Assembly (NCBI GenBank): GCA_032718475.1
Contig: JAUCBJ010008144.1
Location: forward strand, 1 to 39,044
Length of the DNA: 39,044 nucleotides
Direction of reading: 5' to 3'
From: Nemertoderma westbladi
Taxonomy: Eukaryota; Animalia; Xenacoelomorpha
A program made the translations under genes and the position numbers. The notes under the pieces were generated by a model. The model ran no database searches, was not told the DNA's origin, and saw nothing but the letters and a program-made list of their open reading frames with translations. This document shows positions 7,574 through 38,116 of the stretch, piece by piece. How positions within the stretch are numbered: position 1 is the stretch's first letter; each line of letters begins with the position of its first letter.

Positions 7574-7598
7574 TGACCCCTACATGACCGTATAAAAG

Positions 7599-10249: not shown

Positions 10250-10250
10250 A

Positions 10251-13375: not shown

Positions 13376-13471
13376 ATATATTGCATTGTGTTATCACTGG
13401 AGCTCTGCTCGAGTTCCCGCAGCTCTGCGGGAACTCGAGCAGAGCTCCAGTGATAACACAATGCAATATAT
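13376..13471. repeat. Perfect palindrome, 47-bp arms with a 2-nt spacer
   Basis: 13376-13422 is the exact reverse complement of 13425-13471. Confidence 0.95.
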
Positions 13472-15229: not shown

Positions 15230-16092
15230 GATATCAAGAGTAAAATATCGAGGGTTGAAAAATATCGAGAGTAAAAATATCGAGTGTTGAAAAATATCGA
15301 GTGTTGAAAAAAATCGAGTGTAAAAATATCGACAGTAAAAATATCGAAAGTAAAATATCGAGAGTAAAAATATCGAGTGTTGAAAAATATCGAGAGTAAA
15401 AATATCGAGAGTAAAAATATAGAGTGTTGAAAAATATCGAGAATAAAAATATTCCATTTTGCGTGAGCATATTATTTAGGATTATGGGACAATATTGCCG
15501 TTCATTGGTTAGTGCAACAGTGCAACAGTGCAAGAAGTGCAAATAAATGCCATTAATTTACCTTGGCTACCCATTTACCAGATTTATTATACTAGCTAGT
15601 TTTTGCTATTTTTTTAATAAATATTATAGAAGATGTGCTAGCTATAAATTTTGATAAATATTTTTGTTCTAGAACACATTTTTTAGTTCTAGATCACATT
15701 TTTTATTGTTTAGCTTGTTAGTATTTTCTATTTCTTTTTATAAATGTTATAGAACACGTGTAAGCTGCCAATTTTGATAAATATTTTTGTTCTAGAACAC
15801 ATTTTTTTGTTCTAGAGCATATTTAAGAAAAAAAATATCATACAAACCCTTATTAAACAATTTTTACGATATTTTTACTCTCGATATTTCTCAACACTCG
15901 ATATTTTTACTCTCGATATTTTTCAAGACTCGATATTTTTACTCTTGATATTTTTACTCTCGATATTTTTACTCTCGAAATTTTTCAACACTCGATATTT
16001 TTACTCTCGATATTTTTCAACACTCAATATATTTACTCGCGTTAATTTTACTCTCGATATTTTTCATGTCTCGATATTTTTCAATATAACCC
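15230..16092. mobile_element. Foldback-like element with inverted minisatellite arms
   Basis: Tandem 15-18 bp units AAAAATATCGAGAGT / AAAAATATCGAGTGTTG at 15230-15452, and their reverse complement at 15862-16085, surround a ~400 bp AT-rich core. Confidence 0.8.
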
Positions 16093-16147
16093 TCAAGTCA
16101 AAATACTTAAATATCACATTATCATAATAAGGCAAGAATAATTGATA

Positions 16148-16618
16148 CTACTACTAGGTCGAGCGAACTCGGACAGTGGAAATGAGATCCTTCCAGGCTT
16201 CCCGATTCTCCATAGTTGTCGCAATTTCGTTTCTCCCAAGTTCAGTATCCCTTTCAAGTTGATCTATATATGTTATGGCCGGTCGTCCACGACTACGCTT
16301 TCCATGAGTTAGTTGCCAGAGAAGTAGATCTGGTATGACCTCGTCTTTACTTCGCCAGCAGTGCCCACTGAATCTTAATCTGCGTTCACGGAGGGTGGTT
16401 GATACAGGTGGTATTGTACCATAAAGCTCGGCGTTTGTCATGTGTTGTCTCAAGCTGATTTTTAGGGCTGCCCTAGTAGTCTTGTGTAGCAACCATCAAT
16501 TCGTTGTTCAAGTGATTTAGTCAGTGTCCAGGTCTCACCCCCGCATAAAAATACACTTTCCACTGTGGCTCGAAAGAACTTAGTCTTCAGGTGCCTGGAG
16601 AGATCTGATTTCCAGATG
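16148..16618 (-). mobile_element. RTE-clade LINE fragment, 3' part (split by the BEL insertion)
   Basis: IWKSDLSRHLKTKFFRATVESVFL..ETWTLT...RERRLRFSGHCWR...GKRSRGRP is the RTE RT C-terminus. It has a short (TAG)n tail and a left TSD copy AATAATTGATA at 16137-16147. Confidence 0.85.
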
Positions 16619-17771
16619 TGTTCGCGCTTTCAGACCTTTAGCAGTTTAACCTGCCAATTTTAGGTGTCCTCTTGTTTATAAATCGACTTTAGCCTATAAC
16701 AAGTATCCAGTGCACATGAAGCAACATTAGCCGAAGCCAGTCTATGCGCGATCATTCACCCACAGTTAAGGGAGACTGGATTCGGATGCTTTGAAGTGAT
16801 TGCGGTGCAGACCTACGGTATTATTCGATTGATCGTTACTATATAATCTCTGACAATATTATTCACTTTCGGGGAAATATTAACAGTCCCTTTAGGACGT
16901 GGCGCTTTAAGTATAAAAACAGAGTTATGACTTATACTAAACACAACGAGATGGCTACTGATTTTCGTAAATAGCGCATTCTTTAGGAGATGCTTTATTA
17001 TCTGTCACACTACTGCATACGACTTCACACTGCTGCACACTGATCTGCCGACCGTCACTGAATTTGATAATATATAAGGAGGATAGCAACTGACACATGT
17101 AGGGAGAAATAGCATTTAATTCACACTAAAACCACTATAATGTAAGTCGCAATTGCTACAGGTAACCGGTCCCTCTTACCTTCAGTAATCAAGAAGATTG
17201 GGGTTTTATGATTATTTATCAGTATTCTCCAAATATAACAACATATCCATCAACATATAACAATTAATAACAGACAGTAAACAGAAGTAAATTAGTGATT
17301 GTTTTATTATACAGCAATGTTTCAGTTCAGATGTGTGACCAGGTAATAGATTTACGTTCTTGTAATCAAAGCCGTCTAATGTTTGGCCAAAGTCTGAAAC
17401 TTCTACAGAAGTACAGAAGAATTTCCTAAGCCGATGTTCTGAGGCTCAGAAAGGTAAACAAAAACCATAATGCATTGCGCGGTTTTCCATAGGCCTCTGT
17501 ACAAGATAAAATGAAAATCGCTCTGATTGGCTGAGCTGAGCGAGCTGAACAAAGAGATGTTCCACGTTTACAGTAAATCAGCTGACAGATTTCGTCATCT
17601 GAGTTCCAGTCTTTTAGAGTATTAGGCGCATTGTGGCAGAAAATGGCTTATTATGTCCGCTAAAACACCCACACGGTACATTGCGGAGAAAATGGCTTGT
17701 TATGTCCGCTAAAACACCTACACGGCATATTGCGGAGAAAATGACTGGTTATATCCGCAAAAGCTTTTACA
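16619..17771 (-). repeat. BEL 3' LTR (1153 bp)
   Basis: Direct repeat of 37010-38116 (TGTTCGCG...TTTTACA). On the minus strand it is preceded by the short purine-rich tract GGGAGCGG (17779-17772), a candidate PPT. Confidence 0.97.
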
Positions 17772-17849
17772 CCGCTCCCAGAAAATGGGATTTAATTCTA
17801 TAAAATATAAAAAATCACAGTTTCTAAAATATAAAAATACTCTAAACAG

Positions 17850-20800
17850 TTAGTCTTTCTTACGCAAACGGCGTTTACGCAGTTTTTTGAGGCTAGCAAG
17901 AGTCCTTTTCTCTTTGGGGCGAGCCACTTTACTAGGAGGGCTATAACTCCTGGGTGAAGGGTGCAATACAATTGCATCGGAAGGTTTAGGATTACGGTCG
18001 GTGTATCCGCCGGTCGAGGTACCCGGTTGATCGATATCAACCTCAGTGGAGCGAGGTCGAACAACCTTCAGAGCACGTTTCAAGACAGCAGCTCTTACTG
18101 GTCCCTGACGATTCGTCTGCATGAGAGCGGTAGGTGGACTGTGAGTAGTGAGAAATTTCCTCGGTTTGATGGTTCTTTCTAACTTGCGTTCTCGGGCTCT
18201 ATATTCATAGGGTCGTCTATGAACTTCCTGTAGTTCTGGATGCGAGTTGATGAACAAGTCACCATATTCCGGATCTTGACGAATGAAGTTGATCAAGTTA
18301 TTGGAATTAAGATCGTTGGGATTAATGTTCCTGAGATATTTACGAACAAATTTGGTCGAAATATTCTCGCCAACACGCTTCATTAGTTCGTAACTTGGTA
18401 TGCAAGATTTTTGTTTAACGGACGCGAATAGATACGGGTGGAATGCATAAACTCCTTCGTAAGCACGTCCAGGGTAATAGCGATGACGTGACTCACAATG
18501 TAAATCCGCGTTCGCTTCCCAGGCTCGGATGTAGCGTAGGGTAATCATTTCATCTACGCTTTCCAGATTGCGGTTGAAAGGGCAATCAAAACTTGCATGT
18601 CCTTTAAACTGACAATGATGGTATTGAGTCATAAATTGGTGGCAGACTGCAAAAATGTGCAAGTTATTGAGTCTACAATACGCACAATAGATCTCCATTG
18701 TAGGCTGTTCATGGAAGTAGGAGCAGGGTACGTTGGAGTCCACAGGGGTGAAATGGTCTCGAGATGCGCATAATCGGCAACGTTTCCTAGAGACATAATT
18801 GGCATGCCGATAATCGTACGCAGTGAGACATTGTGGACCTTGATACCATTCTAAGACATAGTCATTGTCACTGCTCCGGGGCGCTGTGGGCTGAATCTCC
18901 TCAGATTCTAAGCATATTGGTTCGTCTTCCAATTGCATAGCTGAGGTAGGTGTGGCTGTCTCCTCAAGCGAACCCAGTGTCTGAACTTCCACGATAGAAT
19001 AACCCGTGGGGATTCGAGGTCTTTGTATAACAGAGGAATGTAAGTTCTGTATACAAACATCCTTGAAAATGGCGAATCCAGCGCTGTCTAACTTCTCAGC
19101 AGCTGAGTCTCTTAGGCTGAGCTTGGTCAGAGCGCGGTCCTTGAACTGACTATCAACGTTATGGAACAGAGTCAGAAAGCGCCTAAATCATTCGAAGCGG
19201 ATGAATTTATTGTGTTCATCTAGCTTGGCGAGTTTGGTTCCAAGTATTAAGGGATGGGCGCATATAGTACGACTGCACACATCGGCTAGCCAACCGGCAA
19301 GTGCGGCGTTCTCGAAGATAGTGTATATAGCTAATGAGGGACGAAGTGGAACACTCATGAAGCTATACACGACGCCAGGTGCGGTCAATGGTCCGTCAAA
19401 GTATAATCGAGAATAATGATCTCCATATACTTGTTGATAGTTGATAGGGTTTCCGACTTTGAAATTCCATCCGTATTCTTGAAAGGCAAGATGTCTGATG
19501 GAGGTTCATTGTACTTTATTGATGCCGCTGGGTGTATTGGCATACATAGTTCGGAAGAAACCTCGGCCTTCTGCCCAGGGAGCAATCAGCTGGGTATCTA
19601 CGAAAGGATATGGGATATTCTCCATGTTCCTAAAGTCGTTTTGGAGATCTCCATAAACAGCTGAGCCGATTTTAAGGATTCTTTCGTTAAACAACATCTC
19701 GAGCACGGGCTGGGGTAACATCGATCCATCGATACCCATGGCCGGTTTGCCCTCGGTGTCGGTGATGTAACGCTGCGCAAGTTCGAATTGTCCATGTCGG
19801 AGTTTCTTTTGTATCTTGGTGAGGGTCTCAAAAGAATAATCAATCACGTCGGAACACGCTCGAGTAAACACGTGGGTAGAACCAGCTAGTCCTCGCATAT
19901 GTATCATGCGCGTAGTTCCCAGTTCTCCAACCGGAACGCTACCTTCGTTATCGTAAGTGACAACTCCATACATTTCGATAACGTTAAGAGTTTCGTTCCA
20001 CTCTTTAGTGGCGTTTTCTAGGGTCATCCCCACTGGATGCCACAAGGTGGCGCATTCGCTAGCGTTAGGTAGATCCCTATACTTCAGATACCGTGTAGTA
20101 TACGTCTCTACATCTCCATATCATTGTATTCTCTCCTCGTCGAATAACACGTCGAGATTCCAGTGGACTAATCGTGTTTTGATAAATCCATCGAGATTAT
20201 ACGGAGGCATTATATCCTTCTCTATTCTGGAAACATTGTAGGGTTTTCTGAATGAGTTTACTTTCACTAACTGATCCAGATGTTTCTGCAGTTGTTCGAG
20301 TTCGACAATATCGAGAGGATTTATTAGTGGTAGAAACCTTAGACTATGTGTAGGATTGTCCGGTTTTACCATATAATATTGAGTTAGATTGACATAATAA
20401 GGGTGATCTTTGATCCCATAAAACGAGTTCGGCAAAGGTCTAGCGCGTATGTTGACCTCGTGTACCATACGACGGACAAGATCCGCTCGATTGTCCGGAG
20501 GTTCAACGAGTATACCGTCGACACGAGCGGCCTCGATTGGCGGACGCTGTAACATAGGAGTGTCAGCGATAAGATCTCGAGATCTTAGGTTGATATCAAC
20601 CGGTTGGGGTTGTACCGTTGCGAAGAGTTTGTCTCCGAAATGGGGAACCATCGAGGGATGAATGATGGTTTTGGAATAGAGTTCAGTCATGAGGATTTGA
20701 GCTTCTGGTTGGGCTAAAGCTGCTTCTTCTCTCTCATCCATTTCGATGTGTTTCTCCTCGAGCTGATTTTCCTCCGCTTGTCGTTGTAAGCGTTCGTCTA

Positions 20801-22102
20801 AAACTCTTGTAGAGAATAGGTTCGTCCAAGTTCGATGTCTTCCTCGAGGTTCTGGATTTCTCGATCGAACTGGGGTAAGGCCAACTCCTTCACCGCTTGG
20901 ACTTGTTGCTGCAATTTGCTTTTCTCTAAACAATCGTAAGTTCCTTTTCCGATCTTCTGCCGAATAGCGTCTAACGCGTTTCGTACAACGCTCTCCTCAA
21001 CTTCGGTGACGGGTTGTATCGGGGTTAAACCGGGACGATTGTACGGGTTGAACGGCGATATTAGATGTCCGCGTCCCAATCCGGCTAGGTAGGATGGGCG
21101 AATATCTAGCGAGCACACTACCAGAGTGCCACCGATTAATTGTTCGGGTAACACAAGATCTTTGAACAGCGAGTACAGTTCAGGAGGATCCGTTATACTA
21201 TTAGGATCAAGAGTTTGAGGTCTCACTAGGGAATGAGGAGGTCTGACCGAGTATTCCGGAACTCTGATCATGGGTTTATTTAAGGATCGTTTGAGTCGAG
21301 TGAGCGTAGGTGATACGTCGAACAAGTTTCGCTCAAAACTCCCGTAAGTACAGCGAGTAAAACTGTGTTTAGCGCAACATCTCCGAGGATGTTTATGTCT
21401 TTCCATTTGTTGGTTGGGTCTAGGGCATTCATCGCAATAATACCAAAGACACACGTCCTGTAGGGGAAACGCGGGTGATCGTTCTCCAGTTTTACAATAT
21501 TCCTCCACCTGTTCGAAGCTATCCAGGACAACAGGTAGCGGTCGATCGGCGGTAAGATACATCATAGTGAAATAGAGCCGTTTGAGTTCTATCATAGGGT
21601 CATGATGTATACCTTGAGGATATCGAGTTTCTAGATTTTGTTGGCTGGCAATATTGAGATATGTTTCTCTCAAGAATTCCAGATATTTGTTGAAGTCGCT
21701 GCGTTTATCCGGCTCTTCAACATCTTCTCTTTCGAGTCGGTTTCGAATAGAATTCTCGTGTTCGATTCTCGGTTTATCGTTCCGACTCTGCTGGGTATGA
21801 TATTTAAATAGAACCATTTCCCTTTCGGTGTCTACATCGTCCGTATCATGTAAATCGATAGGATGGCCAGTAGTTAAGAAGTCCATATACGTACCATTAC
21901 GATGCGTATAGCGAGCGGTGAATTTTCTATAGTCCAATTCACGCGTGAGTTGTTCCTTGGACATTGGCGGTTCGATATAATGGCCATCGTCCTCCGTAGT
22001 AGTTGGACTAGCGTCGCCGCGTATTAAGCTATCAACAAACGCTTGCAATGGTAGGGTATATCGCTCCCTGATACCAAGATCGTCTTCTATCAACTCAGTC
22101 AT
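17850..22102 (-). pseudogene. Accessory ORF of the BEL element (~1,417 codons reconstructed): Cys/His cluster, coiled coil, DEDDy-like 3'-5' exonuclease, CCHC knuckles, basic tail
   Basis: ORFs 20121-20933, 19506-20045, 19188-19388 and 17850-18992 share one frame separated only by single TGA codons (20121, 19506, 19188). ORF 20798-22102 joins them by one frameshift near 20810. Exonuclease-like motifs: VVTYDNEG, LPQPVLEMLFNERILKIGSAVYGD, FVDTQLIA, TSIRHLAFQEYG, LAIYTIFE. Confidence 0.8.
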
Positions 22103-22915
22103 AGCTGCTATATGAGTTTATCAATATTATAATTAATTATAATTAGGCTAGCGGGCATCGCTGCCTACCCCTCACTGCCCCCGGACAGCGCAAGATCCTC
22201 AGCGCCGATGTACTGTTGTCGCGGTGCCTATCGCCAACGTAGTAGCTACACAACGACAACAATAACCAGCGCGAGTCACTCCACTGTCCGTCCCAAGGGC
22301 TTAGATTTACTTCAGGTTCTTACTGCAGAGGTAGGGCTACTTTCACAACTGCGACTAGCTACTGTAAACACACTTTAGTAGCAACATTCATCTATAAACG
22401 CACAAATTCCACACAACTGTCACAAATTGTACACATTCGGGCCATTTGTCCATTAGTCAAGTGCCTTCCAGAATGCCACGTTATTATTATGTATCCTTGG
22501 ATACTAGCAGTGCGCTATTTATTCCGTATGCTATTCAATGGGGCAAGCTTTCTATTGTTCTTTTAACTCGCTTCTAATTCTAGCGTGGTTGTTGCTATGG
22601 TGACATTATGGAAAGCTAGCAATAGAATTAGGGTAATTCTCATGCATACAGATCTGGGATGCTATTTAATAGTAATTCTTTAATTGTCAATATTCCCCTT
22701 TATACATGATTTTATGAATTTTATCGGCTATTGACTATATATTGGAGATTCTCTCACACTAATATACTTAATAGGGTGAATCTCCGCTCCCATGATCTAT
22801 TAATTAATGGAATTTTGGGAATGTTATAAATTGCATAAAATGACAATTTATCAAATTCATGAGAGGATATGAATTTAAAATTATTCCCATAAATTTTATT
22901 ATTTAATATTAAATA

Positions 22916-23304
22916 GGCACAATTTTATTCCAGAGCATGTCTGGGGACTGGGATCCTTGATTCTAGGAAATTTGTCTTTTTAAGAGTATCGGTAAGTGCT
23001 ACGATATCTTAATCGACTAGAATTTTAAAGGATCTAAATTTTAACAGATTTTGATTTATAGATTTTCTTGGTTTACAAACTCCTTAGAGTTTATTTGTAT
23101 GCATTTACTCTATTATAACATTTGTTTTAATAGATTTTTTATAAATATTAACTATGTAATATTTAAGATGGGCACCGATTTATTCCAGAACTTGTCTGGG
23201 GACGTTAACCACTGATTCTAGAGTTTTGTCTTTCAAGTATATCGGTGGGTGCCGCGATATCTTAATCGACTAGAATTACAGATGGTCAAAGGGTTTAACA
23301 GATT
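22916..23304 (-). repeat. Two diverged ~135 bp direct repeats (22916-23051, 23171-23304) with conserved base-pairing potential
   Basis: Shared blocks ggcac, ttattccaga, tgtctggggac, tgattctag, cgatatcttaatcgactagaatt and ttaacagattt. Confidence 0.85.
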
Positions 23305-23833
23305 TATTTTGCGTTTTACGCTACTGTTAAAGCGACATCATGCTACTATATGTATTATTTAATATACGGTATGAGAGCAATATTGCAAGAAGCAATGTCA
23401 GTGAGAAGAGGCAAGTCGTTTCCAAGGTCTACCCAGAGCTTGGTTTAGCCTAGGCACGAGGATCTGAACTTTGCATTCCTAATACTCTACTTACCAATAA
23501 TACTTTAGTTTAGTAGGAGCTTTATTGTACTTTAATAAGTATGGATATTTAATCTTACTGTAGTCACGCATTTATAATATGATACGGACAGTAAGGAAAG
23601 AGAAAGGAATTATTTCTCGCCGTTGCACTAAATATATAATATAAGTAATTAAGTAATAAACACGAGTATATATATTGCACTAATCTACTAAATAATCGTT
23701 AAAATAACATTCTACTAAATAAAATTAAAGAAAACGATTATAATAAAATTACATAATAATACATACATAAATATAAAATAATAAAAAAAAAAATATATAA
23801 AATAATATAGTAACATACCCACTCCAGACGCTG

Positions 23834-25121
23834 TTACGTTGGGGAGTCCCTAGATGTTTGTTGGATTAGGGAGGTGGTCGTGGGAAGAGTATCTTGCCTT
23901 CCATAGTTTCCGGATAGTTCTCTGTCTCTTTCCAGTAAACATAAACGACCAACTGGGCGATTGAGTTGCTGCATTTCGAATACAATTCCAGGTTTCTTAA
24001 AGTTATGTTGCATGACGACGAGTTCTACCGATCGCACTAAACCATCATCGGAGATATGAGTCTCGATGATACGACCTGTCTGCCACCGTTTACGTGGAAG
24101 ATCTGATTCCACAATAAGGACCATGTCTCCGGCGCTGACGTTTTCTTGCTGCGCAAACCACTTGGTTCGAAGTTGTAGCATAGGCAGATAATGTTTTTCG
24201 AAATGGTCAGCGAAACGACAGGCTAATAACTGCATAAGTTGCCAAGTTTGTCGGCAGTATTCGTCTCCGTCCGTGATTTCCGATCGTGGGAGCATGGCTA
24301 CAGGTTTCTTCAGTAGGAAGTGTGCGGGTGTTAGCGCTTCCAGGGAGTCAGGACTCGATGAGACTGAAGCGGTCTCTCGTTAAGATAGGCGGCGATTTCT
24401 TCCATTAACGTCCGCAAAAGTTCGTCGGTGAGATATGCGCGGCACGGCACTATAAAGTGAAATGCGGTCTTCAAGGTCCTTATTAATCTCTCCCAACTTC
24501 CTCCCCACCAAGGGGCGTCGGCGGCGTTGAAGGTCCAGCTAGATGCTGTTACCCTTAGCTGATCGTCCACCTGTCTTTGGTTCCAATCTTTAACGTAAGC
24601 TTTGATCTCATTATTGGCGCCAATGAAGTTCGTTCCATTATCAGATCTCATCGTATTGCTAGTTCCAAAGCGAGCGATCTGTCGGCGTAAACTCTGTATG
24701 AAGCTGTTGGTAGATAGATCGTTCACCATATCTAGATGGATCGCTCTACAAGTCATACAGACAAAGATGACACCCCATCGCTTGACTATAGTCCTAGCAC
24801 AATATACTTCAATAGGGCCAAATAAATCCATACCGGTATTAGTAAAGGGTGGTTCATAGAAGCTTACTCGTTCCCTAGGTAATTCTGCCTTAAAGGTGTG
24901 TTAAAGCTGTGTTAAAGGCCTACTAAATGCTTTCCTACAGGGTATACAGTTCCTAAGAACTTGGTTCAGAGCTCTACGGGGTTTATGAAAATAATAGCAA
25001 GTTCGAATTTCACTAAGAACTCGTTCTCTACCAGCATGGTAAAGCTTACTGTGAACATCTACAATCATCTTGATTTGTATTTCAAGATTTCTAATGAGTA
25101 TGGGAAACTTAGTGTCAAAGG
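23834..25121 (-). pseudogene. BEL integrase (HHCC finger, rve core, C-terminal domain), disrupted
   Basis: VHSKLYHAG..CIPC, PFTNTGMDLFGP, CMTCRAIHLD, SDNGTNFIG, PWWGGSWERLI, W.TGRI....DGLVRSV..RPVGRLCLL. Contains stops and frameshifts. Confidence 0.92.
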
Positions 25122-28100
25122 CTCAGGACTCAGCTGCATAACAACAGTGCGTTAGCGGCCTCTGAATCGCAGTCTGTTTTGGCTAATGATACCAGTGGGG
25201 ATGCACCTGCTGTGGGCGCAGCCTCCGCTTCTATGGTGGATCCCACCCCCACGGGGATTTAACCAAACGGAAACGTCAATTATCTTAGTGATTTGTGAAT
25301 ATATATAAAATATCTATATTTTGTTTTTCTATAACTAATTGTATATACCTTTTACAATGGCAACCTTAAATGTACAATCTTACAACTGTAATTCTGTTAG
25401 GAGCCTTAGTGCTCGCAATGCAGTTCACAATATTTGTGAAAACGGTTGTGATGTGCTAATGCTTCAGGAGCTCATGTTACCCAAGCAGGAGCTATCCTTC
25501 CTGGGTTCGTTGCACCCAGACTTTTTGTACTTTGGTATTTCACCCGTGGACTATTCCAGCGGACCTTTAATCGGACGCCCATATGGGGGGCTCGGTATAT
25601 TATGGAGAAAAACGGTGGCCCATGCTATTAACGTTGTATCATTGGGCTACGAGAGAATCTTAGGAATTACAATTGATATTAAGGATGGACAAAAATTACT
25701 GATTCTCAATATTTACTTACCGTTTCAGTGTGCTGATAATGAGGAGACATACCTTTCCTGCATGGGTGCTCTGCAGTCTATCATTGTAGATACTTGTAGT
25801 GATTATGTGTGCATAATTGGTGACTTTAACGCCAATCCTGGTACTCGTTTCTTCAACTTTCTTAATAGCTGGCGTTCAGATCTGGGACTCAGTATAGTAG
25901 ACATTGATTCCTTGCCGGTGGACACTTTTACCTTTGTTAGTAGTGCTTATGGGTCTACCTCTTCGCTTGACCATGTGGTATGTTCTGAGTCACTTTCAAA
26001 TAAGCTTATAAGTGTGTCTGTAAATTATGATCTAGTTACAGACGATCACATGCCAATCAGCGTTAATTTTTCTATTAGTGCTAAAGATTTAGCTTCTGAG
26101 ACCGAGCCTCAGATTACAGACGCGGCCAACAACCCAGCTGCGGTACCCCGTGTCGATTGGAAACGAGTATCCCAGGATGGTCTAACATCCTATTGTAATA
26201 ATGTGCAATCTGAACTGTTGGTAGTATATAATGATTTTATTGCAAATGACTCTAATTGTACATGTACATGTACAGATGTTAATTGTGTTAATCCCGCACA
26301 TAGGAAATTACTGGATAGTTTTTATGACAATATTGTACAAGGTCTAGGGGCAGCAAGTGCACCACTGCCCAAAGTTAAATCAAATAAGAACGGTACAGGT
26401 AGATACAACATTCCAGGATGGAATTCCCTGGTTAAAGATAAGTATGATGAATCGAGAAAACTTTTCAAATTATGGCGCACCTGTGGCTCTCCCCGTCAAG
26501 GTACAATTTTTAATGATTATTTATGTGCGAAAGCTAACTTTAAGCGCTGCCTCCGGCACTGTAAACGTGAGCAGTCAAATCTGCGTAATAATAAAATTGC
26601 AGAAACCCTGATCACCGACTCAAGATGTAAGGGTGGTGCAACCAGTAACGATTTCTGGTCAGAAATACGGAAACAATCCACCGAATCATCCACTCTCCCT
26701 AATAAAGTAGGGGGTGCGGTGGGTGAATATGCAATCAGTGAAATGTGGCAAAAACATTTTGAAGGGTTATTTAATTGCGTCAACGACGACACAAAGTGTG
26801 ATACAGTAAAATCAAAATTGAGTAAATTAATATTTAAAGATACGGACCGTGTAAGTATGGTTGAAGTATTTGATGCAATAAATAAATTACAACCTGGTAA
26901 AGCAGTAGGACCCGATGGTCTGAGCGCTGAATATTTTATTAACGGGTGCAACTTTGAATTGATTAATTGTATTATGGTGCTATTTAATTCAATTTTCATT
27001 CATGGGTATTTACCCGAGAAAATGATTGAATCCATTATTATACCTTTGGTAAAAGACCGTTCTGATGATGTCACATCGAAAGATAACTATCGTGGCATTG
27101 CTATAGCTACGGTGTTAAGTAAGATTTTTGAGTTTGTAATTATCAATCGGGTGGTAAACATACTTTCGTCAACACCGAATCAATTCGGCTTTAAAGGAAA
27201 ATTAGGCACTGAACTTTGTGTATACACATTTAAGGAAATAGTTAATTATTATTTGTCAAGAAACACACCGGTGTATGTATGTATGTTGGACCTTAGCAAG
27301 GCATTTGATCGCATTAACCACTATTTACTTTTTGATAAGTTGATTGACCGTGGTGTGCCGTTATTTATAGTTCGGGTTATATTATTTTGGTACAGAAATC
27401 AATTAATGTGCGTAAGATGGGGGTCTATTCTATCGAATAGTTTTACGGTTACAAATGGTACCAAACAGGGCGGGATACTCTCCCCCCTGTTCTTTAATAT
27501 TTATATTGATAACTTAAGTGCAGATCTAACTAATACTGGGTTGGGCTGCAAAATGGGTGACATGCGAATTAACCACTTGTGCTATGCTGATGATCTTTGT
27601 TTGCTAAGTAATTCTATTTTTGGTCTGCAGTGCTTAATAAATATTGCAATAAAATTTGCGGATAGTAGTTCTATGCTGTTTAATTTAAAAAAAACTAAGT
27701 GTATGTACTACTATCCCAAATCCTCTCAAGGTTGTGCGTCTAATGTATATATATATGGAAAACGAATTGAAATTGTCGATAAATTTGTTTACTTAGGTCA
27801 TTTATTACATTGTAGTACCGACGACGACTTCGATATTCTTAGGCAAACTAACTCACTCTATGCACGTGGTAATTACATATGTAGGAAATTTGGTAGTTGT
27901 TCAGATAAGGTTAAAGTTAAGTTGTTTCAAGCATTTTGTACTCCTATTTATTGTAATGCGCTGTGGGCTAGCTCAAACTACTCCCAGAGTGCATTCCAAA
28001 AAATACGTGTTGCTTATAATAATTGTTTACGTATGTTATTTAACATTCCTCGAATGACTGGTGATGATCCCACCAGTATATCTTTATACTTTGGAACTTT

Positions 28101-28345
28101 GAATATCCCGATGTTTGTTCATATACAGCATACTTCACGGAATAGTTTATTTAATAGGGTTATAAATAGTGCAAATATAATTGTTAAGACTGTATACAGG
28201 ATCACCCGAATTGACGGTGTGTCAAGAATTTTTCGTTTGTAAATATCTTTATTTAATTTATGTAATTTGTGCTATGTTCGTAATACGTTTTACTATGGAG
28301 CAATGGCTCTGGTTTAAATAAATAAAAAAAAAAAAAAAAAAAAAA
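25122..28345 (+). mobile_element. 5'-truncated LINE (RTE-X-like), inserted antisense in BEL pol
   Basis: It has an EN-RT ORF, a poly(A) run at 28324-28348 and a TSD AAAGG (25117-21, 28346-50). Removing it restores the BEL frame GGRLTNAPLS-FDTKFPILI. An open frame ending at ~25262 may be the tail of ORF1. Confidence 0.93.
25357..28242 (+). CDS. LINE ORF2: AP endonuclease and reverse transcriptase (961 aa from ATG), intact
   Basis: SYNCN, LMLQE, NIYLP, GDFNA, LDHV, DDHMP (APE); NYRGIA, QFGFK, LDLSKAFD, GTKQGGILSP, YADD, FVYLG (RT). The C-terminal VAYNNCLR pattern suggests the RTE-X clade. Confidence 0.95.
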   Translation: MATLNVQSYNCNSVRSLSARNAVHNICENGCDVLMLQELMLPKQELSFLGSLHPDFLYFGISPVDYSSGPLIGRPYGGLGILWRKTVAHAINVVSLGYERILGITIDIKDGQKLLILNIYLPFQCADNEETYLSCMGALQSIIVDTCSDYVCIIGDFNANPGTRFFNFLNSWRSDLGLSIVDIDSLPVDTFTFVSSAYGSTSSLDHVVCSESLSNKLISVSVNYDLVTDDHMPISVNFSISAKDLASETEPQITDAANNPAAVPRVDWKRVSQDGLTSYCNNVQSELLVVYNDFIANDSNCTCTCTDVNCVNPAHRKLLDSFYDNIVQGLGAASAPLPKVKSNKNGTGRYNIPGWNSLVKDKYDESRKLFKLWRTCGSPRQGTIFNDYLCAKANFKRCLRHCKREQSNLRNNKIAETLITDSRCKGGATSNDFWSEIRKQSTESSTLPNKVGGAVGEYAISEMWQKHFEGLFNCVNDDTKCDTVKSKLSKLIFKDTDRVSMVEVFDAINKLQPGKAVGPDGLSAEYFINGCNFELINCIMVLFNSIFIHGYLPEKMIESIIIPLVKDRSDDVTSKDNYRGIAIATVLSKIFEFVIINRVVNILSSTPNQFGFKGKLGTELCVYTFKEIVNYYLSRNTPVYVCMLDLSKAFDRINHYLLFDKLIDRGVPLFIVRVILFWYRNQLMCVRWGSILSNSFTVTNGTKQGGILSPLFFNIYIDNLSADLTNTGLGCKMGDMRINHLCYADDLCLLSNSIFGLQCLINIAIKFADSSSMLFNLKKTKCMYYYPKSSQGCASNVYIYGKRIEIVDKFVYLGHLLHCSTDDDFDILRQTNSLYARGNYICRKFGSCSDKVKVKLFQAFCTPIYCNALWASSNYSQSAFQKIRVAYNNCLRMLFNIPRMTGDDPTSISLYFGTLNIPMFVHIQHTSRNSLFNRVINSANIIVKTVYRITRIDGVSRIFRL

Positions 28346-28350
28346 AAAGG

Positions 28351-31300
28351 ATAATGGAGCATTAGTTAGTCTCCCTCCAACACGTATTAACCCATCTATC
28401 ATTGTGCTAGAGAAACGATCCCTTAAGCGCATCTGGATTTCTCAACAACAGGAAATACTTATCGGAATCTTCATAGCATTGCAAGAGTCTCAGTATCTGC
28501 TTATTGGTTTCTTCATGCTCCTGGTAACTGATCTTCTCCGTCAGAAACCTATCTGATACCTTGTATTTGGGAAGATCTTTAATAGCATGGACCTGTGCAG
28601 ATGTCAGTGGAGCGGTATCACTAGCGATCTTCGTCCTGGAGTAGTGATAATGGAAGCATTGCTTCAAATACACGACGGCCTTACAAAGCCGATTCCAGGA
28701 GCTATAGTGATGTATCGCTCTCTGCAGGAGAGGTGAGAGTCCCTGCGAGACGTCTGGTGTTCCAGATTTCCAGTCTCTTTCTCTAATTTCCACAACAGAT
28801 TTATTTGTGGTGGGGGAGTTTAGATCCACAGCGTCATCTCCGGAAATGTGTACTACAGACAGATCTATCATGGGTTTAAATAACTTCGATTTACTCATCC
28901 GGGTTTTAGGTTTGACTTTCTCCGCTCCCTTGGCTTGTCTAATCTCAGCCGTGGTGAGATGAGGAGGCCATTCATCCCCTTCTTTACTTAGGAAGTCGGG
29001 TCCACCTAACCAGTCCGGAGTATCTATCAGTTCTTGAGGAGTTGCTCCTCTGGAGGCGATGTCGGCTGGATTAATCGTCCCAGGGCAATGTCTCCATTGA
29101 TCTACATTAGTGCGACTAAGTATAATGGCTACTCTGTTGGTAACGAAGACGCTGAACTGACAGACTTCATTGGTTATATACTCCAAGACGAGTAAAGCAT
29201 CGGTCCAATAGACAGTTTTCTCCAGTGGATAGTCGATCTGTTCTGTTACATTCCGGCCGATGGCTGTAGCGTATAGAGCCGCCTTTAACTCCGCTTCGAG
29301 GAACTCGTAGTTTGTTGTTTATCAAGGCCTTAGAAGTAGCCAAGGCAACTTTAATTCCGTCCGGAGTTTCAACTCCCAGGTAGGCTACTATACCTATTCC
29401 CATATCGCTGGCGTCTCCAAACACATGGAGTTGATAGGTATACATGGGGAGAACGTGACCAAAATATGAACGGGAAATCGTAAAGTTCTCGATGGAGATA
29501 GATACTCCGAGCACCCAATATAACTGGGCTAATAAATCCCAATGGATCGAAATAAGTGCTCAGGATACTTAGACAAATCCGTTTAGTTCGAACTGGATTA
29601 TCTCGCTGTTTTAGCTGGAAAAACAGGATATCTCTCTCCGTGTCCCATTTCAGACCAAGTGTCTTGGTTTCCGGAAGATCGTCCTTGATAGGTCCAGGTC
29701 TTTAACCCCTCGGTCTTCTACCGGGATCGATTCCAGAAACTCATGGGAGTTGCTAGTGAATTTGGTTAGTCGAAATCCACTGCATTTCAAGCACTCTACC
29801 GTTCCCCTGGCAACATCAATGGCTTCTTCCACCGATGGAAGGGACTTTAAATTGTCGTCCATGTATATATCCCGTTTGATGTTGTCGATAACCGCTTTAG
29901 AGAAGGCGTCTCGGCTGTCATCAGCAGTGGTACGCACTACTGAACAAGCGTTCGAGGGGCTCGAGATGATCCCGAAAGCCTGGATGGTCATCCAGTACTC
30001 CACCGGTTTTTGGTTGAGGTCTCCTTCAGGCCACCACAGAAATCGTAGGCTGTCTCGATCCCTATCCAGCACCTTAACTTGTAAGAACATGCCTTCTATA
30101 TCCGAGGCGAAAGCGATAGAATATTGCCGTAATCTTAAGAGTATTCCCAACAAGGATTGGAGTAAGTTGGGTCCCGGCATCAACTCAGAATTAAGTGATT
30201 GGTCCATGTAAAGGGCGGAGCCGTCGAATACTACCGGGACTTCGTTGGGTTTACCGGGTTTGGGAATGTAATGATGTGTTAGATAATAGGTTCTCTCAGT
30301 TATAGGTGTTTCTTCCTGTACTCGCTCCGCGTATCCCTTATCGATGAATTTCTTCAGCTGGGTCTTATACATCTCTTTAGCTGAAGCATTTGCCGTAAGG
30401 CGCCGACGTAGTTGTGCGATTCTCTTCTCCGCCAAGGGTCGGTTATTTATAAAGTTGGGTTCTCGCCGTCGGAATGGCAGACCAATCTCATACCTACCTT
30501 GATCTTTAAGAAAACGTGTAGTCGTTTCCTGGATCTGCTTGGCTCTTTCCTCCTCGACCGATAGTGCTTTGTCGTAGGAATTACGCTCTACAGCTTCTTG
30601 AGTAAAGAATCGTACGGCGTGTTCATCGCGAATCTTAGCATTGTGTCGATCTATCACCTCATTTAGCTCGTCGTTGTAATCGAGTTGTCCGCCATGATTG
30701 ATGAGATGGCAAAGGTGCACTTGGTTTCTCCATGCTTCACTTTCTATCTGAGGAGTATGGTGTTCCCTCAGGTGTGGTCTCTCCCTCACTGATTTCTTCT
30801 TCCCATTCACTCACCTGATGTATATGCTCGGTAGGTAATCTTTCCATGAGTGTTCTACGGGAAGGTCCAGTGAAGTACCAACCTACTCTAGTTCTTCCCG
30901 CATAGGTTTGCAATGGTTGCGGTCGAGCAGGCCGTTTCTCTAATGTCTCAAGCGCCTCATGCGCATTTTGGCCGATCAATATCTGCACCCATGGGTAGTC
31001 GGTGTTGAATCTAGGGATATTATGCTGCTGGGTAAAATCGTCTTCATCCCAGTTGTAAGGTTCCACTTGGCTGGTAGCAAAGTTCTTTATCGCCACCATT
31101 TTTACTGACCTTTTGCTGTGTTCTCCTAGTTCGTCCTGGGGAGTGGACAACGCGCCTACATAGTAGTCTGTAGCTACTGTAGATTTCCAAACCTGCATAA
31201 TTCCTGAAAGGTTCAACTTAGTTCGGAACTTGGGTTGTCCAGCAAAGATGTCTTCGGCTAGTTCTTTGTCGATGAATGTTCCTGTGCTGCCGGAGTCCAG

Positions 31301-34300
31301 GAGGGCGTTGACTATAAAACTCTTACCTGATCCATGGACTCTCAGCTGAACTACCGGGAATTCCCGAATTCCGACATTGGAGGTTGGCGCTTTCCAAGAT
31401 GGTTGTCGGTCAGGAATAGTCGGGTGCGCTTCGTTATCGGTTTCAGTCTCATACGTAAGCGCTCGATACACCGCGGTGTTTATCATATAACAGGATTCGT
31501 TTTCGTCAGAGAATTCGTCCGTGTAAAATCCTTCCATCTCAGAGCTGTGGTCAGTGTCGTTCACATCACTGAATTGGACATGTAGTTCGGACTCACTTAC
31601 CTGACTCGGGCTGGTTCTTTCAAATTCGGTGTGCAGCAAGATATGATGTTTCGCGCCGCACTTAGCACACCTCGCGTCGGAGTAACAGGTTCACCGTTGG
31701 TGTCCTTGCCTGAGACAATTATAACACAACCGCTTATCCCACATGACATCACGTCTATCCTTTAGGGATTTCTTTAAGAATTCATCACATACACTTAAAC
31801 GATGGGGCCCGTCGCACAATGCACATTTGGGTTTGATGTTACTCACTTTACCTTAGGTAGTGTTGTGCACACTTGTTCTTTCCTCGGGCTTTTTTCCATG
31901 AATTCTTTTAGGAGACGCAGGAGAAGTTTTTGTTACCTGTTCTCTCCTGTCACTGGTTCGAGACTTAGATTTACTTACGTCTTTAGGTGCTTTGTTGACA
32001 TAGTAAGATCTTTCGGTGTCTTTCCTGCTGTTCTCCTCCTGAGAGGTTTGGCTTTCGCCGTTGTCTGTATAACACACTGGTGTTACCTTTCTCCTAGAAG
32101 CGGGTTTTTCATTTACTTTATTTTCCGGTGTCTTCTCTCGGGACTGTTTTAGGAGCTGTAATCTTACCTCTCCATTTAAGAATGACATGAGATCAGCCAT
32201 GGTAGGGTCTCTTTGTTGCTGGTCCATCATATAGAGAACTCTCTTATCCCAACGCGTACCTACTCCACCCTTCGGCAAAGTAGATGCTACGGCTCCAACA
32301 TCCAACAACCATAGAACTCTGATATTCATGAGACTTACCTAGCCAATCTAATGGTCTACAGATCTCCTGGATCTCATCGGAAAATTCTATAATCCCGCTG
32401 CTAAGGAACTTTTGGGGTGCTACTAATTTCGCATACAAATACCTAGCTATGTTAGTCCTATTACCATACCTGATGTTTAGTGTATCCCAAACTTGTCGCA
32501 ATCCATCTGGATGTCCAATAAACTTTAACGCCATTAACTTGGGAGGTCCTTCCAAGCACTCGATGAGGAATCTAAGTTTCTCTCCATTAGATAGTACAGA
32601 GTTCTGTATGTTATCTTTGTAATATTCATTAAAAGGTAACCATTTCATCTCATCTCCATTGAACTTGACGATCTCCCCCACCTTTACCGCTTGATGGGCT
32701 TCGGTTCTAGCCATTTGACGCGTAAAACTTTCTTGGGCAATCGTATTATTTAATATCGAGTTATCGGTATTTAAATTTCTCGGATTATGATCAGGTCTAT
32801 ATGGAATATCATTATCAACAGGTTTATAATTATCCTTAAGAGGGTTTACTATTGGAGTTTCTACTTCTCTAGCAGTATAGATGCGTGTAGGCTCCACACC
32901 TTGCGCATGAAATACTTCAGACCTAACAGGTTGACACATTGTTACAGGGGGTGGTGGTATACCCCTTTGTATATTTACCAATTTATCGCGTTCTAAAGCG
33001 ATACTCTGCTGCACTTCTTGCAACTCTAACCTACCTTCTCTTACTGTTCCCTTTAACTGTTGAACAGTCCCCTCCAACTCCCGGACCTGTTGGGAGGAAC
33101 GTTCCCGATGTTCCTCCATCTGCCCGAGCAGGAGATCCATCCCCCGCCGTCGCTCATCCACCCACTCTACCGCTGAAGCGGGAGCCGCCAACATAGTAGC
33201 GGGCAGACGAGGGACGACGGGCGACAAATCGTTAATGTCTCGCTCGGCGTCCAGGACTAGAATTGACTCAGGGGCTGTTCTACTGGGCACAGGTAGTTTA
33301 GTACTGTGCAAAGGGAATTTAGAGTTAGGTTCTGGAAGTACAGGGGTCTCTATCACAGAGGGGGTGGCTTCGGGAACAGGCCTAATTATTTCAGGCTCAT
33401 CTACTATAGTAGGGAGTCTTTCTATTCTTATTATTTTGGTCTGTGTGTTCTGTACTACCTAAGTCTGCACTAGCTAGTTGCCTTTTCACAGCTGGGGGCA
33501 AATTAGGCAATTTCTGACGGTAGGGCGTTCTTCTATGTCTGCTGGAACGAGATCTATTTCCTCCGCCTTCAGGATCTGTTGTATCGCCTTCATCAGATGA
33601 TGTAAATCCCTGTCTCTTGGGAGTAGATCGACTTATCATCTGCATATGACTAGCTCTTCTCTGTTTATTTAAGTAGTCTTGCTTCTCTTGAAGATTTTCC
33701 AACTCTAGTTGGGCTGTCTATTCAGATGCCCTCCATTCGGCTGCTGCCACTGCCTCTGCCGCTTTTCTTTCCGGTTCTACCGCTGCCTCTGACACTTTTC
33801 TTTCCGCTTCTACCGCTGCCTCTGCCACCTTTCTTTCCGCTTCTGCCGCTGGCTCTGCCTCTGCCGCTGCCATTGCCACCTTTCTTTCAACTTATGCCGC
33901 CGCCGCTGCAGCTGTCCTTCTATCCTCTATCTGTTTTTTCTTTAATTGTTCTTCCTGTTCCCTAGCGATGAGGATTCTTTCATCAAATTTAGCCTGATCC
34001 GTGGCTAACATTTCCGCATCTAATGAGTCTAACACAAATTTGGCTCCCTCACTATTAGGGTGAAGTCCAGCTAGCCGTCTCCTCAACTCTTTGTCACCTA
34101 TAAATCTTTGATAGTCTGACAGATAGATGTCAATAGCGTCCTTCTTCTGAGGTTTCTCTGATGTAACGTCGCTTTCCACCTGAGAAAAGGTAGCATCTGT
34201 TGATTCTCCGTGGATAGCGCGCTCAGTTAGCTGAATTTTCCATTGGGTTGTTCCTTGGACTTTAAGACTTACCCGTTGGAACCAAGTCTTTACGGCGACT

Positions 34301-35094
34301 TGCAACGACGTGTCTTGGCTTCTCTTCGAGGCTTCCTCAAAGGCTGAAAGGATTAGTCTGATTCTTAGGATTCGTTCTCGAACTTGATAAAGCAGCTCTC
34401 CCTGCTCTTGAGGTCCCTGGGGTTGTTGGAACAGTTGTTCCTCTAATCGCTCCAAAGAGCTGACGAATCCCTGTACATATCCTGCTGCCGACGTTTTCCA
34501 CACAGCTGGATCTCTAGTGTCCTTTACCACTCCCATCCGGTATAAGTCCTCCCAGGCAGCTTCCGATAAGTTAAACGGGAGTCCGGGTCCGGGGAAGTTC
34601 CATTGCGTCTCGACAATAGACTTCAGTTCCTCCATTGTGTATCCCACATAACTGTCCTTGGTCGATCGCTTACTTCTCGCCCAATCGATTTGATGTTCCT
34701 CCACTGCAATCAATACCCTAGTGAGTACGGCTTCAGGAAGAATTAGAAGTGGGTCCGAATAAACTGCTTCTGCCATCTTTGCTCCGCGCTCGGGTGTCAA
34801 CTCTACAGTATCTGAACTACTGGAGCTATCGGGCCGCTGAGAAATAAGTTCTCGGTTCGGGTGTTGCTGCTGTTTAACAGCGGCCTCTTGGTCCCGCTTG
34901 ACTTGAGCCCGAGTGCCTATGATAGACCTACGGTGCTTTACTAGCCTAGGGTCTGATACTACTACTGGAGGGATGACTTTTCTTACAGTAGGAGGGGACT
35001 TGGACTTCGGTCTCAAATGTTCGGCACTCCTGTCGGAGTCGCAGGCTGTTCTTTCTAGGAGACTATCTGACAGAGTTTGCTTTGTGTCAGCCAT
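28351..35094 (-). pseudogene. BEL gag-protease-RT-RNase H polyprotein, disrupted
   Basis: Fragments: 33892-35094 (N-terminal extension), 32244-33356 (KFNGD..W..F...EKLRFLIECLEG), knuckles ~31635-31827 (CALCDGPH..C; CYNCLRQGH..C; CAKCGAKHH..LH), protease 30737-31639, RT 29650-30810 and RNase H 28407-29514. Confidence 0.93.
33745..33910 (-). repeat. Coding low-complexity tandem repeat (charged, Ala-rich) in the Gag N-terminal extension
   Basis: Repeated ~33-36 bp ccgctgcctctg...ttctttccgcttc units. Confidence 0.7.
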
Positions 35095-35230
35095 GTTTGA
35101 TTGTACAGTTGAATGCCTACTACTATAAACGACAGTTAAAGCAAGTCTAGTAATTCAGTATCAACTGTAAGCCTAGTAATTAATTACCGATACCGTTACT
35201 CAGTGTAACGTGATATATATACAATATATT

Positions 35231-35488
35231 AGAATACCGGTATATACTTATAGTATATATATAAGTATTATTACAGACTAGGGTTTGTCACAGAATACCG
35301 GTATATAATTTCAGCATAAATAATATAGAAATATATATAATAAGCCTACCGTAAATACCGGTATACAGCATACACTTATAGTATATATAAGTATTATTAT
35401 GGACTAGGATTAATTACAGAATACCGGTATATAATTTCAGCTTAAATTTATAGAAATAAGTATAATAAGCCTATCGGAAATACCGGTA
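35231..35488. repeat. Tandem duplication (~130 bp x2) in the BEL 5' leader with five ATACCGGTA motifs
   Basis: acttatagtatatataagtattatta...cagaataccggtatataatttcagc...tataataagccta occurs twice. Confidence 0.85.
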
Positions 35489-36998
35489 ATGTCAATTATT
35501 TTACGATGTCTAAATTTCTGAAATTTAGGATTACTTTCCTTTACTTTATTACTGTTATTAAGCAGTAGTCCAACTGATATTAGGACCTAATTGATGTATA
35601 ACGGGCCTACTATTTTATAAATCGGTTTGAGTTGATTTATAATATATATATACCTGTATAATGGGTTTTTGACAATATTTGAAATAAATGTTATTATTTC
35701 TGGTAAGGAGTCACTACACAGAAGCTGAACGCTCTCAGTGGAGTGCTACCTGTTAGACACTAAAACAAATAATTCTACTTTACTAAGTTACTTATTACTA
35801 CAAATTACATACAATTACTGTGTAGGATTACAATTTCTAAATAAACACCAAAAGTTACACGTACAAATTTTAGGGTAATTTTACAGGAAATCTACAAACC
35901 AGCCTAACAAGGAGTTAGAATTTCTGGTTATTACAAACGGACAGGATACTACGGTATTTGAAAATAATTAAGCAGTAGTAAATAAATTGCATTGTCTAGA
36001 TAAGAAAATACCACCGTCTGACGACTTATAGTCTTTAGCTCTACAGCTCTATAAGTACTACGTTATGTACCCGGAGTGTCCTTACCTAGAAGTTAATTAC
36101 CGCAGCCAACCAGAGCTAACGTGCCTATTAACCACTTTACAACACAAATATACTGCCTACACACCAATTACCTTCGGAAAGTACTGTACACTAAACCCTA
36201 AATTAGGTACAAGTACTTATACAACAAATAACCAGCAGTTAAATATACTTGTACAGCTAAAAGAACCACGGTATCTGCTGGAGTGACTAGAGCATAAAAT
36301 CACCAGTCTTTACCTACGCCAAGCAGCCCTGATGTAGTACCGGGGTTAGTTTAACAATAACTGTATGTATAACAAGCACAATTACTGTAGGAATAAACTT
36401 GGGGAGTTATGTAGGTTGCGAATACTCGCATAGACTCTGAATAATAAATATTACGCTACCCGTGCAGACTATACAGACAAAATACAGACCAAACGCTGGC
36501 AGACTGCTATCAAGCCTAAATAAACTACAGTATATGCAGACTCCGAAATGGTTAGTTAGTATGCGTTCTAACCGAGTAGTATGACTTATTCTTTCGGGGG
36601 AGGGGGGGGGGGGATTTACCTTACAGCACTGGATGCCCCCACCTTCCTAACTAGTACTTTATCGGACATACACTCTACACACACTGCAATCGCTTCAGAC
36701 TCAACAACAGTCAGACAACAATCCAGCCTACAAATTATTTGTACAATTTGAGCGGGCTTACACGCCTTCTGCTCAATATTACACTTCAGATAAATAAAAC
36801 TGACAGAAATATATAAGCTCTAAAAGAAACAAGGGGTGTACAGTCCCTAATCTCTTAAACAGCCTACCAATATACAATATCACAATCGAAATAATACTAG
36901 TACCGGTAAGTACTGGTTCGGGTGGTTAGGTAGTTAGGCCTACAGGTTACCGTCCGACCGGTACAGTCGAATTTATTGCCTATGTGCAATCAAAACAG

Positions 36999-37009
36999 AA
37001 ATCTATTAC
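36999..37009 (-). promoter_or_regulatory. Non-tRNA primer-binding site candidate (complementary to an LTR-internal 11-mer)
   Basis: On the minus strand GTAATAGATTT directly follows the 5' LTR, with no TGG. It is the exact complement of minus-strand AAATCTATTAC at 37748-37738. Confidence 0.6.
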
Positions 37010-38116
37010 TGTTCGCGCTTTAAGACCTTTAGCAGTTTAACCTGCCAATTTTAGGTGTCCTCTTGTTTATAAATCGACTTTAGCCTATAACAAGTATCCA
37101 GTGCACATGAAGCAACATTAGCCGAAGCCAGTCTATGCGCGATCATTCACCCACAGTTAAGGGAGACTGGATTCGGATGCTTTGAAGTGATTGCAGTGCA
37201 GACCTACGGTATTATTCGATTGATCGTTACTATATAATCTCTGACAATATTATTCACTTTCGGGGAAATATTAACAGTTCCTTTAGGACGTGGCGCTTTA
37301 AGTATAAAAACAGAGTTATGACTTATACTAAACACAACGAGATGGCTACTGATTTTTGTAAATAGCGCATTCTTTAGGAGATGCTTTATTATCTGTCACA
37401 CTACTGCATATGACTTCACACTGCTGCACACTGATCTGCCGACCGTCACTGAATTTGATCATATATAAGGAGGATAGCAACTGACACATGTAGGGATTAT
37501 GAAATAGCATTTAATTCACACTAAAACCACTATAATGTAAGTCGCAATTGCTACAGGTAACCGGTCCCTCTTACCTTCAATAATCAAGAAGATTGGGGTT
37601 TTATGATTATTTTTCGGTATTCTCCAAATATAACAACATATCCATCAACATATAACAATTAATAACAGACAGTAAACAGAAGTAAATTAGTGATAGTTTT
37701 ATTATACAGCAATGTTTCAGTTCAGATGTGTGACCAGGTAATAGATTTACGTTCTTGTAATCAAAGCCGTCTAATGTTTGGCCAAAGTCTGAAACTTCTA
37801 CAGAAGTACAGAAGAATTTCCTAAGCCGATGTTCTGAGGCTCAGAAAGGTAAACAAAAACCATAATGCATTGCGCGGTTTTCCGTAGGCCTCTGTACAAG
37901 ATAAAATGAAAATCGCTCTGATTGGCTGAGCTGAGCGAGCTGAACAAAGAGATGTTTACGTTTACAGTAAATCAGCTGACAGATTTCGTCATCTGAGTTC
38001 CAGTCTTTTAGAGTATTAGGCGCATTGCGGCAGAAAATGGCTTATTATGTCTGCTATAACACCTACACGGCATATTGCGCAGAAAATGACTGGTTATATC
38101 CGCAAAAGCTTTTACA
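37010..38116 (-). repeat. BEL 5' LTR (1107 bp)
   Basis: Direct repeat of 16619-17771. On the minus strand it has CCAAT at 37925-37921 and AATAAA at 37703-37698. Confidence 0.97.

Follow-up and report, generated by a model that had tools for sequence, protein, structure and literature searches.

ORF3 is a family-wide gene of a BEL/Pao retrotransposon

The window analyzed is the 39,044-nucleotide contig JAUCBJ010008144.1 of Nemertoderma westbladi, which holds a dead copy of a BEL/Pao long terminal repeat (LTR) retrotransposon with a third open reading frame (ORF), ORF3, located after integrase and ahead of the 3' LTR. The element is 21,498 bp long and reads from 38116 to 16619 on the minus strand (Table 1). 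Its two LTRs align with 1,087 matches, 16 mismatches, and 3 gap events, a Kimura two-parameter distance of 0.015 (1.5% divergence). Pfam places DUF1759 (E = 5e-11), Peptidase_A17 (2e-7), and DUF5641 (3e-21) along gag-pol in the BEL/Pao order. The reverse transcriptase (RT) is 38–47% identical to BEL/Pao polyproteins, nearly all with PF05380 (best 120 of 366 matches), and the named RT relatives among the matches listed are mostly from marine invertebrates and fish. The LTR ends, target-site duplication (TSD), domain order, and RT likeness identify the element as a BEL/Pao LTR retrotransposon (Belpaoviridae), as a preliminary description of the locus had stated.

ORF3 is sense to the element, starts with the ATG at 22102, and covers 4,253 nt (1,417.7 codons), with its last base 78 bp from the 3' LTR. 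The five sense-strand pieces, three TGA stops, single frameshift, length of ~1,417 codons, and distance to the LTR given in the preliminary description were all reproduced, and the motifs it quoted (a Cys/His cluster, YDNEG, ILKIGSAVYGD, FVDTQLIA, SIRHLA, and YTIFE) are present. The remaining frames over the same span hold 54–95 stops each, so the openness of ORF3 is far beyond chance. ORF3 was analyzed as two sequences, P0001, which has X at the stops and supplies the residue numbers used here, and P0002, the unbroken N-terminal piece. Kyte-Doolittle hydropathy over 19 residues revealed no transmembrane (TM) segment (maxima 1.51 and 1.19; hydropathy only, no signal-peptide predictor), and Pfam returned no env family match. 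ORF3 is not env-like, in agreement with the earlier account.

Sibling copies were examined as contigs of four public runs (X1–X4) from one organism with 80–100% identity to this copy. The numbers aligned were 50,905, 31,191, 15,457, and 728 contigs per run, and their summed depth does not equal copy number. Sibling contigs cover 30/30 bins spanning the LTR, ORF3, spacer, and pol end in 4/4 runs. Each of the three stop codons differs in siblings at 85–100% of X1 depth, and the pieces crossing the frameshift have one gap in 5/5 of those listed, which indicates that these lesions are confined to the present copy or shared by a small subgroup only. Recoding was considered since all three in-frame stops are TGA, and was rejected because at each of them the greater part of the sibling depth carries a difference within the codon.

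Selection was assessed in the nuclease-like region from 40 of 157 difference rows, 37 of them outside the stops. These 37 comprise 24 synonymous and 13 non-synonymous differences, a ratio of non-synonymous to synonymous polymorphism (pN/pS) of ~0.16, and the synonymous excess is significant at p = 4e-8 (2e-4 with a more conservative null). The split is 21:5 (synonymous:non-synonymous) for rows that vary between siblings and 3:8 for near-fixed copy-specific rows, a division that points to selection while the family lived and neutral decay after the present insertion. Of 27 long ORF3 sibling pieces, a count that leaves out two rows from a single jointed record, 8 are gapped, the frameshift accounting for 5; spacer pieces are gapped in 3/3 cases, and 12/12 listed indels fall outside ORF3. 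Three points temper this picture. The 40/157 rows counted were chosen by support, the rest of ORF3 has a weaker excess (16:14, with polymorphic rows 10:5, from 30 listed of ~1,880 rows), and the sibling contigs are short, none of those listed reaching from pol to LTR, so that linkage is inferred from continuous cover. ORF3 is a family-wide gene under purifying selection; the sibling check proposed with the preliminary description found the gene in all four runs.

The alternative that ORF3 is a passenger of this copy alone, either a host retrocopy or an independent element decaying neutrally, draws on the neutral appearance of the copy-specific changes (3:8 plus three stops) and on the missing contig that would join ORF3 to pol and LTR. 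It is made very improbable by the coverage of ORF3 together with the LTR, the spacer, and the end of pol in 4/4 runs down to 80% identity, by the synonymous excess at polymorphic sites, and by the window repeat analysis, in which ORF3 is bordered by neither repeats nor poly(A). The term "domesticated" used in the preliminary description has the direction reversed: the element carries the gene as cargo, which may derive from a host gene or from another mobile element.

Sibling contigs with joints 18200–20743 and 18929–21733 lack 2.5–2.8 kb of mid-ORF3, which removes the nuclease-like domain (runs X1–X4, within 18012–21733). These contigs are deletion derivatives of the family, and they fit a function supplied in trans. 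Among 80 related BEL/Pao loci from metagenomes, of which only 17 have at least 2 kb downstream, none has an ORF3 or DEDDy match. Long ORFs past integrase in 6/80 of these loci (L017, L030, L056, L063, L067, and L075) were rejected as ORF3 and are gag. In these six, gag lies ~1.0–1.3 kb past integrase, in permuted assemblies, circles, or tandem copies with no space for ORF3.

The exonuclease-like domain and accessory motifs

The best supported part of the ORF3 middle domain is the ExoII block with the adjoining DTQ block. Only two of 18,950 NCBIfam models matched, both of them RNase D and both at ExoII-DTQ (E = 0.0036 and 0.02). A hidden Markov model of 14 bacterial DEDDy domains ranked the ExoII-DTQ stretch first of 163 targets, where it exceeded 1,000/1,000 shuffles. 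The ordered-motif score of 42.8 (z = 5.4) compares with a maximum of 39.4 in 500 shuffles and 33.9 for the best of 122 real controls, and the hhalign score of 31.5 (E = 4e-4) with 19.4 for the best of 60 decoys. D390 pairs with RNase D D85 by every method. By eye, the ORF3 ExoII block matches the Dada-2_LB exonuclease at 11/28 residues without gaps (Fig. S1, PMC3706591; publications are cited by PMC number for the portions available), and WRN is similar. The ExoI-like pair, D289 and E291, ranks 1 of 979 positions by a slim margin (8.4 bits vs 7.8 for the next). At the ExoIII-like block, Pro-Leu, six residues, and Tyr precede E502 by eye with the spacing of RNase D and WRN, and the listed sibling rows show only synonymous differences at T499, F501, and E502. 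These results suggest that the middle domain is likely a DEDDy-like exonuclease, and we consider a full DnaQ fold probable.

Other observations count against this assignment. The ExoIII candidate reads YxxxE, not YxxxD, and ranks only 20 of 966 positions; the domain is classed as DEDDy-like rather than as a DEDDy member because it lacks the YxxxD motif. Neither the ordered-motif test nor any of three MAFFT runs places ExoIII at Y498/E502, MAFFT sets ExoI at D326 without a Glu partner, and the helix between DTQ and ExoIII ranks 43. The RNase D matches cover ~45/170 positions and are far under curated cut-offs, and the hhalign probability is 35%, or 14% with the whole piece. The D-to-D spacings in ORF3 (101 and 112) exceed those of RNase D (57 and 70) and Trypanosoma brucei RNase D (TbRND; 65 and 85) by 30–45 residues. 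Pfam DNA_pol_A_exo1 does not match ORF3, and PDB sequences, PHROGs, and plasmids gave no meaningful match. For ORF3 beyond the N-terminal piece, a 5.8-billion word search confirmed 0/4,077 and 0/48 candidates, and HMMER against 1.84 billion protein representatives found no homolog and one low-complexity match. Metagenome and viral contigs likewise yielded no ORF3 homolog, nor did the N-terminal piece and knuckles match the PDB. These blank searches are weak evidence because RNase D, put through that PDB search, recovers WRN at no better than E = 0.84. Single-sequence fold models (predicted local distance difference test 30.3 and 30.4) were uninformative on a DnaQ/RNase H-like fold. The DEDDy exonuclease proposed in the preliminary description is supported at the ExoII/DTQ core; its ExoI placement is weak and its ExoIII placement is by eye only.

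Two alternatives bear on this domain. ORF3 could be real and selected with a DEDDy likeness that is chance or a remnant, its fold and function being something else: ~45–65 residues align, the probabilities are low, the fold models are uninformative, and there are no homologs. Three independent tests converge on a single block in which the catalytic Asp is in register, and each of three ordered blocks takes first rank, which renders this alternative unlikely. A less remote possibility, still well short of probable, is a DEDDy-fold pseudo-nuclease, an RNA-binding adaptor comparable to EXD1 and Maelstrom that localizes, exports, or shields element RNA. EXD1 and Maelstrom are inactive DEDD derivatives that still bind RNA (PMC5408684), the ExoIII Asp is missing and its Glu replacement is retained across siblings, alignment does not support the ExoI and ExoIII placements, and the knuckles and basic tail suit RNA binding. 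Against this, the four by-eye catalytic positions are all acidic and unchanged in 40/40 listed differences, and the rotifer element ORF3s also have an Asp-to-Glu change (DEED; PMC5408684). We lean slightly toward catalytic competence, with D289, E291, and D390 as predicted ligands and Glu502 as the putative fourth.

The nuclease-like block is followed by three CCHC-like knuckles, the forms of which are CX2CX4HX9C with a long last spacer, CX2CX5HX4C, and one that, in this copy, is without its initial Cys. The region matches Pfam zf-CCHC_3 at E = 0.0033, short of its curated cut-off. The Pfam check proposed earlier thus returned this match and none to DNA_pol_A_exo1, and the three knuckles described at the outset are present in the forms just given.

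Coordinates and other elements in the window

Table 1. Features of the element and of ORF3, listed in element order.
Feature	Position	Strand	Remarks
5' LTR, TG...CA	37010..38116	-	1,107 bp; aligned with the 3' LTR
Non-coding leader, 1.9 kb	35095..37009	-	126-bp tandem repeat within
gag-pol	23834..35094	-	split into 12 or more ORF pieces; order DUF1759 gag, protease, RT, RNase H region (Peptidase_A17), integrase, DUF5641
Nested long interspersed nuclear element (LINE) in pol	25120..28348 (ends approximate)	+	967-aa endonuclease-RT ORF, poly(A) tail
Non-coding spacer between pol and ORF3, 1.73 kb	22103..23833	-	~165-bp internal duplication (76%); purine-tract-like site just past pol stop
ORF3, ~1,417 codons	17850..22102	-	three stops and one frameshift in present copy
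ORF3 pieces, five	22117-20798, 20996-20121, 20120-19506, 19505-19188, 19187-17850	-	latter four share one frame
N-terminal Cys/His cluster	21350..21436	-	likely metal-binding; no family match
ORF3 frameshift	~20798-20836	-	in overlap of first two pieces
ORF3 in-frame TGA stops	20123-20121, 19508-19506, 19190-19188	-	from ORF listing
ExoI-like block (D289, E291)	19941..19964	-	weak support
ExoII block (D390) and DTQ block	19581..19718	-	statistically supported DEDDy-like core
ExoIII-like block (Y498, E502)	19305..19352	-	by-eye placement; Glu retained in siblings
Three CCHC-like knuckles	18582..18779	-	motif inspection and Pfam
Lys/Arg-rich tail	17853..17900	-	possible nuclear-localization or RNA-binding segment
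Purine-rich tract preceding 3' LTR	17772..17781	-	sequence inspection
3' LTR, TG...CA	16619..17771	-	1,153 bp; contains 49-bp tandem repeat
TSD, 5 bp, CATCT	16614..16618, other copy 38117-38121	-	flank comparison

No TGG-type primer-binding site was seen at the start of the internal region (37009–36960, minus strand), the first bases of which are GTAATAG; host tRNAs were not compared. The ~550 codons upstream of the gag domain (35094–33397, minus strand) include a first 400 without a Pfam, PHROGs, or NCBIfam match and an Ala/Glu-rich 33-bp repeat at 33736–33859. A purine tract followed by TGTT lies at 23825–23812 (minus strand), eight bases past the pol stop, an arrangement that we take to resemble how BEL/Pao internal regions usually end. 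This tract may be the ancestral 3' LTR start, before the gain of the spacer and ORF3. The spacer has no similarity to the present LTR or leader. The element measures 18.3 kb without the nested LINE. The ICTV profile gives BEL/Pao lengths of 4.2–10 kb (PMC8742986), and a survey reports a median of 7.4 kb and a maximum of 22,762 bp (PMC3118150, supplement 9); size was rejected as a novel trait because the survey includes elements of that maximum.

The 3.2-kb nested LINE is young, with an unbroken ORF, and lies antisense in pol just ahead of the integrase zinc finger. Both flanks of the BEL/Pao element (38117–38330 and 16400–16618) have an open frame, presumably the tail of a LINE RT, which would place the element within an older LINE. 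The minus-strand stretch 7360–10359 appears by eye to be a decayed Ty3/gypsy-like element, with RT- and integrase-like peptides, lying between 109-bp direct repeats that are 97% alike; Pfam gave no match there. Two inverted arrays of 15/32-bp units with a short core at 15210–16101 resemble a foldback or miniature inverted-repeat transposable element type, and further long hairpins lie at 10414–10703 and 13376–13471. The endonuclease domain of another LINE (3–815, minus strand; Pfam 9e-8) extends beyond the window.

Precedents and proposed role of ORF3

A DEDDy ORF in the env position is known from other retroelements. The bdelloid elements Juno and Vesta (Ty3/gypsy) and Athena/Terminon (Penelope) carry an RNase D-like DEDDy ORF3 with DEDD changed to DEED, typically as a separate, spliced unit (PMC5408684), as reviews restate (PMC6431247, PMC6338049). 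ORF3 of the present element is likewise a separate RNase D-like ORF past pol in the env slot, with no TM segment and one Asp-to-Glu change, here at the ExoIII-like site. It differs in its BEL/Pao host and in its ~1,400-residue multi-domain form with a Cys/His cluster, knuckles, and a basic tail; exonuclease homology is marginal in ORF3 and strong in the rotifer ORF3s, which were compared by description only. Rodriguez et al. (2017) raise 3'-end processing and silencing roles for the DEDDy ORF3s, the function being left open, and report no clear deviation from neutrality for the env and GDSL types of ORF3 that were sequenced (PMC5408684).

The order of domains has a cellular counterpart in TbRND (PDB 7C42/7C45), an exonuclease followed by four CCHC fingers that trims small-RNA 3' ends (PMC7797062). 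TbRND is a mitochondrial enzyme with the full DEDD set and no detected sequence match to ORF3, and the parallel is one of architecture only. A DEDDy domain also occurs in Dada DNA transposons (PMC3706591), where Dada-2_LB is the best by-eye match to the ExoII block and WRN shares the Pro-Leu-to-Tyr spacing before ExoIII; in Dada the domain lies within the DDE transposase, retains all four DEDD residues, and has no long inserts.

The published BEL/Pao third ORFs that were found are env-like (PMC8742986, PMC13524379). The elements concerned, roo, Tas, Atlas, and the mosquito chuvirus-glycoprotein elements, resemble ours in that a third ORF lies after pol and ahead of the 3' LTR, and differ in that it encodes a membrane glycoprotein. 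A search of the open literature, which did not extend to subscription journals, the majority of supplements, or the Repbase, Dfam, and GyDB collections, found no BEL/Pao exonuclease ORF, and the term "exonuclease" occurs 0 times in the available portions of PMC3118150, PMC8556966, PMC12440569, and PMC13524379. The novelty suggested earlier appears to hold for BEL/Pao and not for the env-slot DEDDy ORF as such, which is published for bdelloid Ty3/gypsy elements (PMC5408684): the concept was already known, and what is apparently new is its presence in BEL/Pao together with the size and domain set.

We consider ORF3 to be an accessory gene, likely encoding a soluble RNase D/WRN-type 3'–5' exonuclease with CCHC knuckles that acts in trans, and assign this reading a probability of about 55%. 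The protein would be made separately from an RNA of its own, produced by splicing or internal initiation, because a 1.7-kb non-coding spacer parts ORF3 from pol. RNA would be bound by the knuckles and basic tail and its 3' end delivered to the nuclease, as in trypanosome RNase D, and the nuclease would trim RNA 3' ends, RNA rather than DNA being the presumed substrate by analogy with TbRND. The protein would work in trans and would not be a core enzyme of replication; that ORF3 is an accessory gene, perhaps trans-acting, follows from the existence of related BEL/Pao elements without it and of siblings with the domain deleted.

A nuclease that serves replication in cis within the particle, by trimming cDNA or genome ends or proofreading an 18-kb genome, would suit the 18.3-kb length set against the 7.4-kb median and the lack of a visible canonical primer site. 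The nearest by-eye block, moreover, comes from Dada DNA transposons, for which end-processing has been proposed (PMC3706591). ORF3 is, however, separate from pol, its absence from all 80 related loci (17 with at least 2 kb downstream) indicates that it is dispensable for BEL/Pao replication, and deletion derivatives exist. We know of no precedent for RT proofreading by a separate protein, which also counts against a role in cis, and we regard such a role as improbable, if anything slightly more so than a chance DEDDy likeness. It overlaps with the accessory reading solely in what kind of enzyme ORF3 would encode.

Within the accessory, trans-acting reading, our tentative choice of substrate is RNA used by the host against the element, such as small-RNA precursors or leftover replication RNA. 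This choice is more likely wrong than right. A viral precedent is the arenavirus ExoN, which dampens innate signaling (PMC7968707). In its furthest form, the proposal is that this BEL/Pao lineage is the first whose third gene is enzymatic, encoding an active DEDE-type zinc-knuckle exonuclease without detectable public protein relatives that was selected for destroying small-RNA precursors or replication RNA and would be a suppressor of animal silencing or innate sensing; we hold this full version to be doubtful. To our knowledge, element-encoded suppressors of animal small-RNA silencing have been sought and are scarce; a literature search on the subject listed reviews only.

If the accessory nuclease reading is true, DEDDy exonuclease capture in the env slot would extend to a third retroelement group, which would suggest that the benefit recurs and is not a peculiarity of rotifers. 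The present high-copy family, with a synonymous excess in the nuclease-like region and natural deletion derivatives, makes the benefit of a nuclease to a retrotransposon testable.

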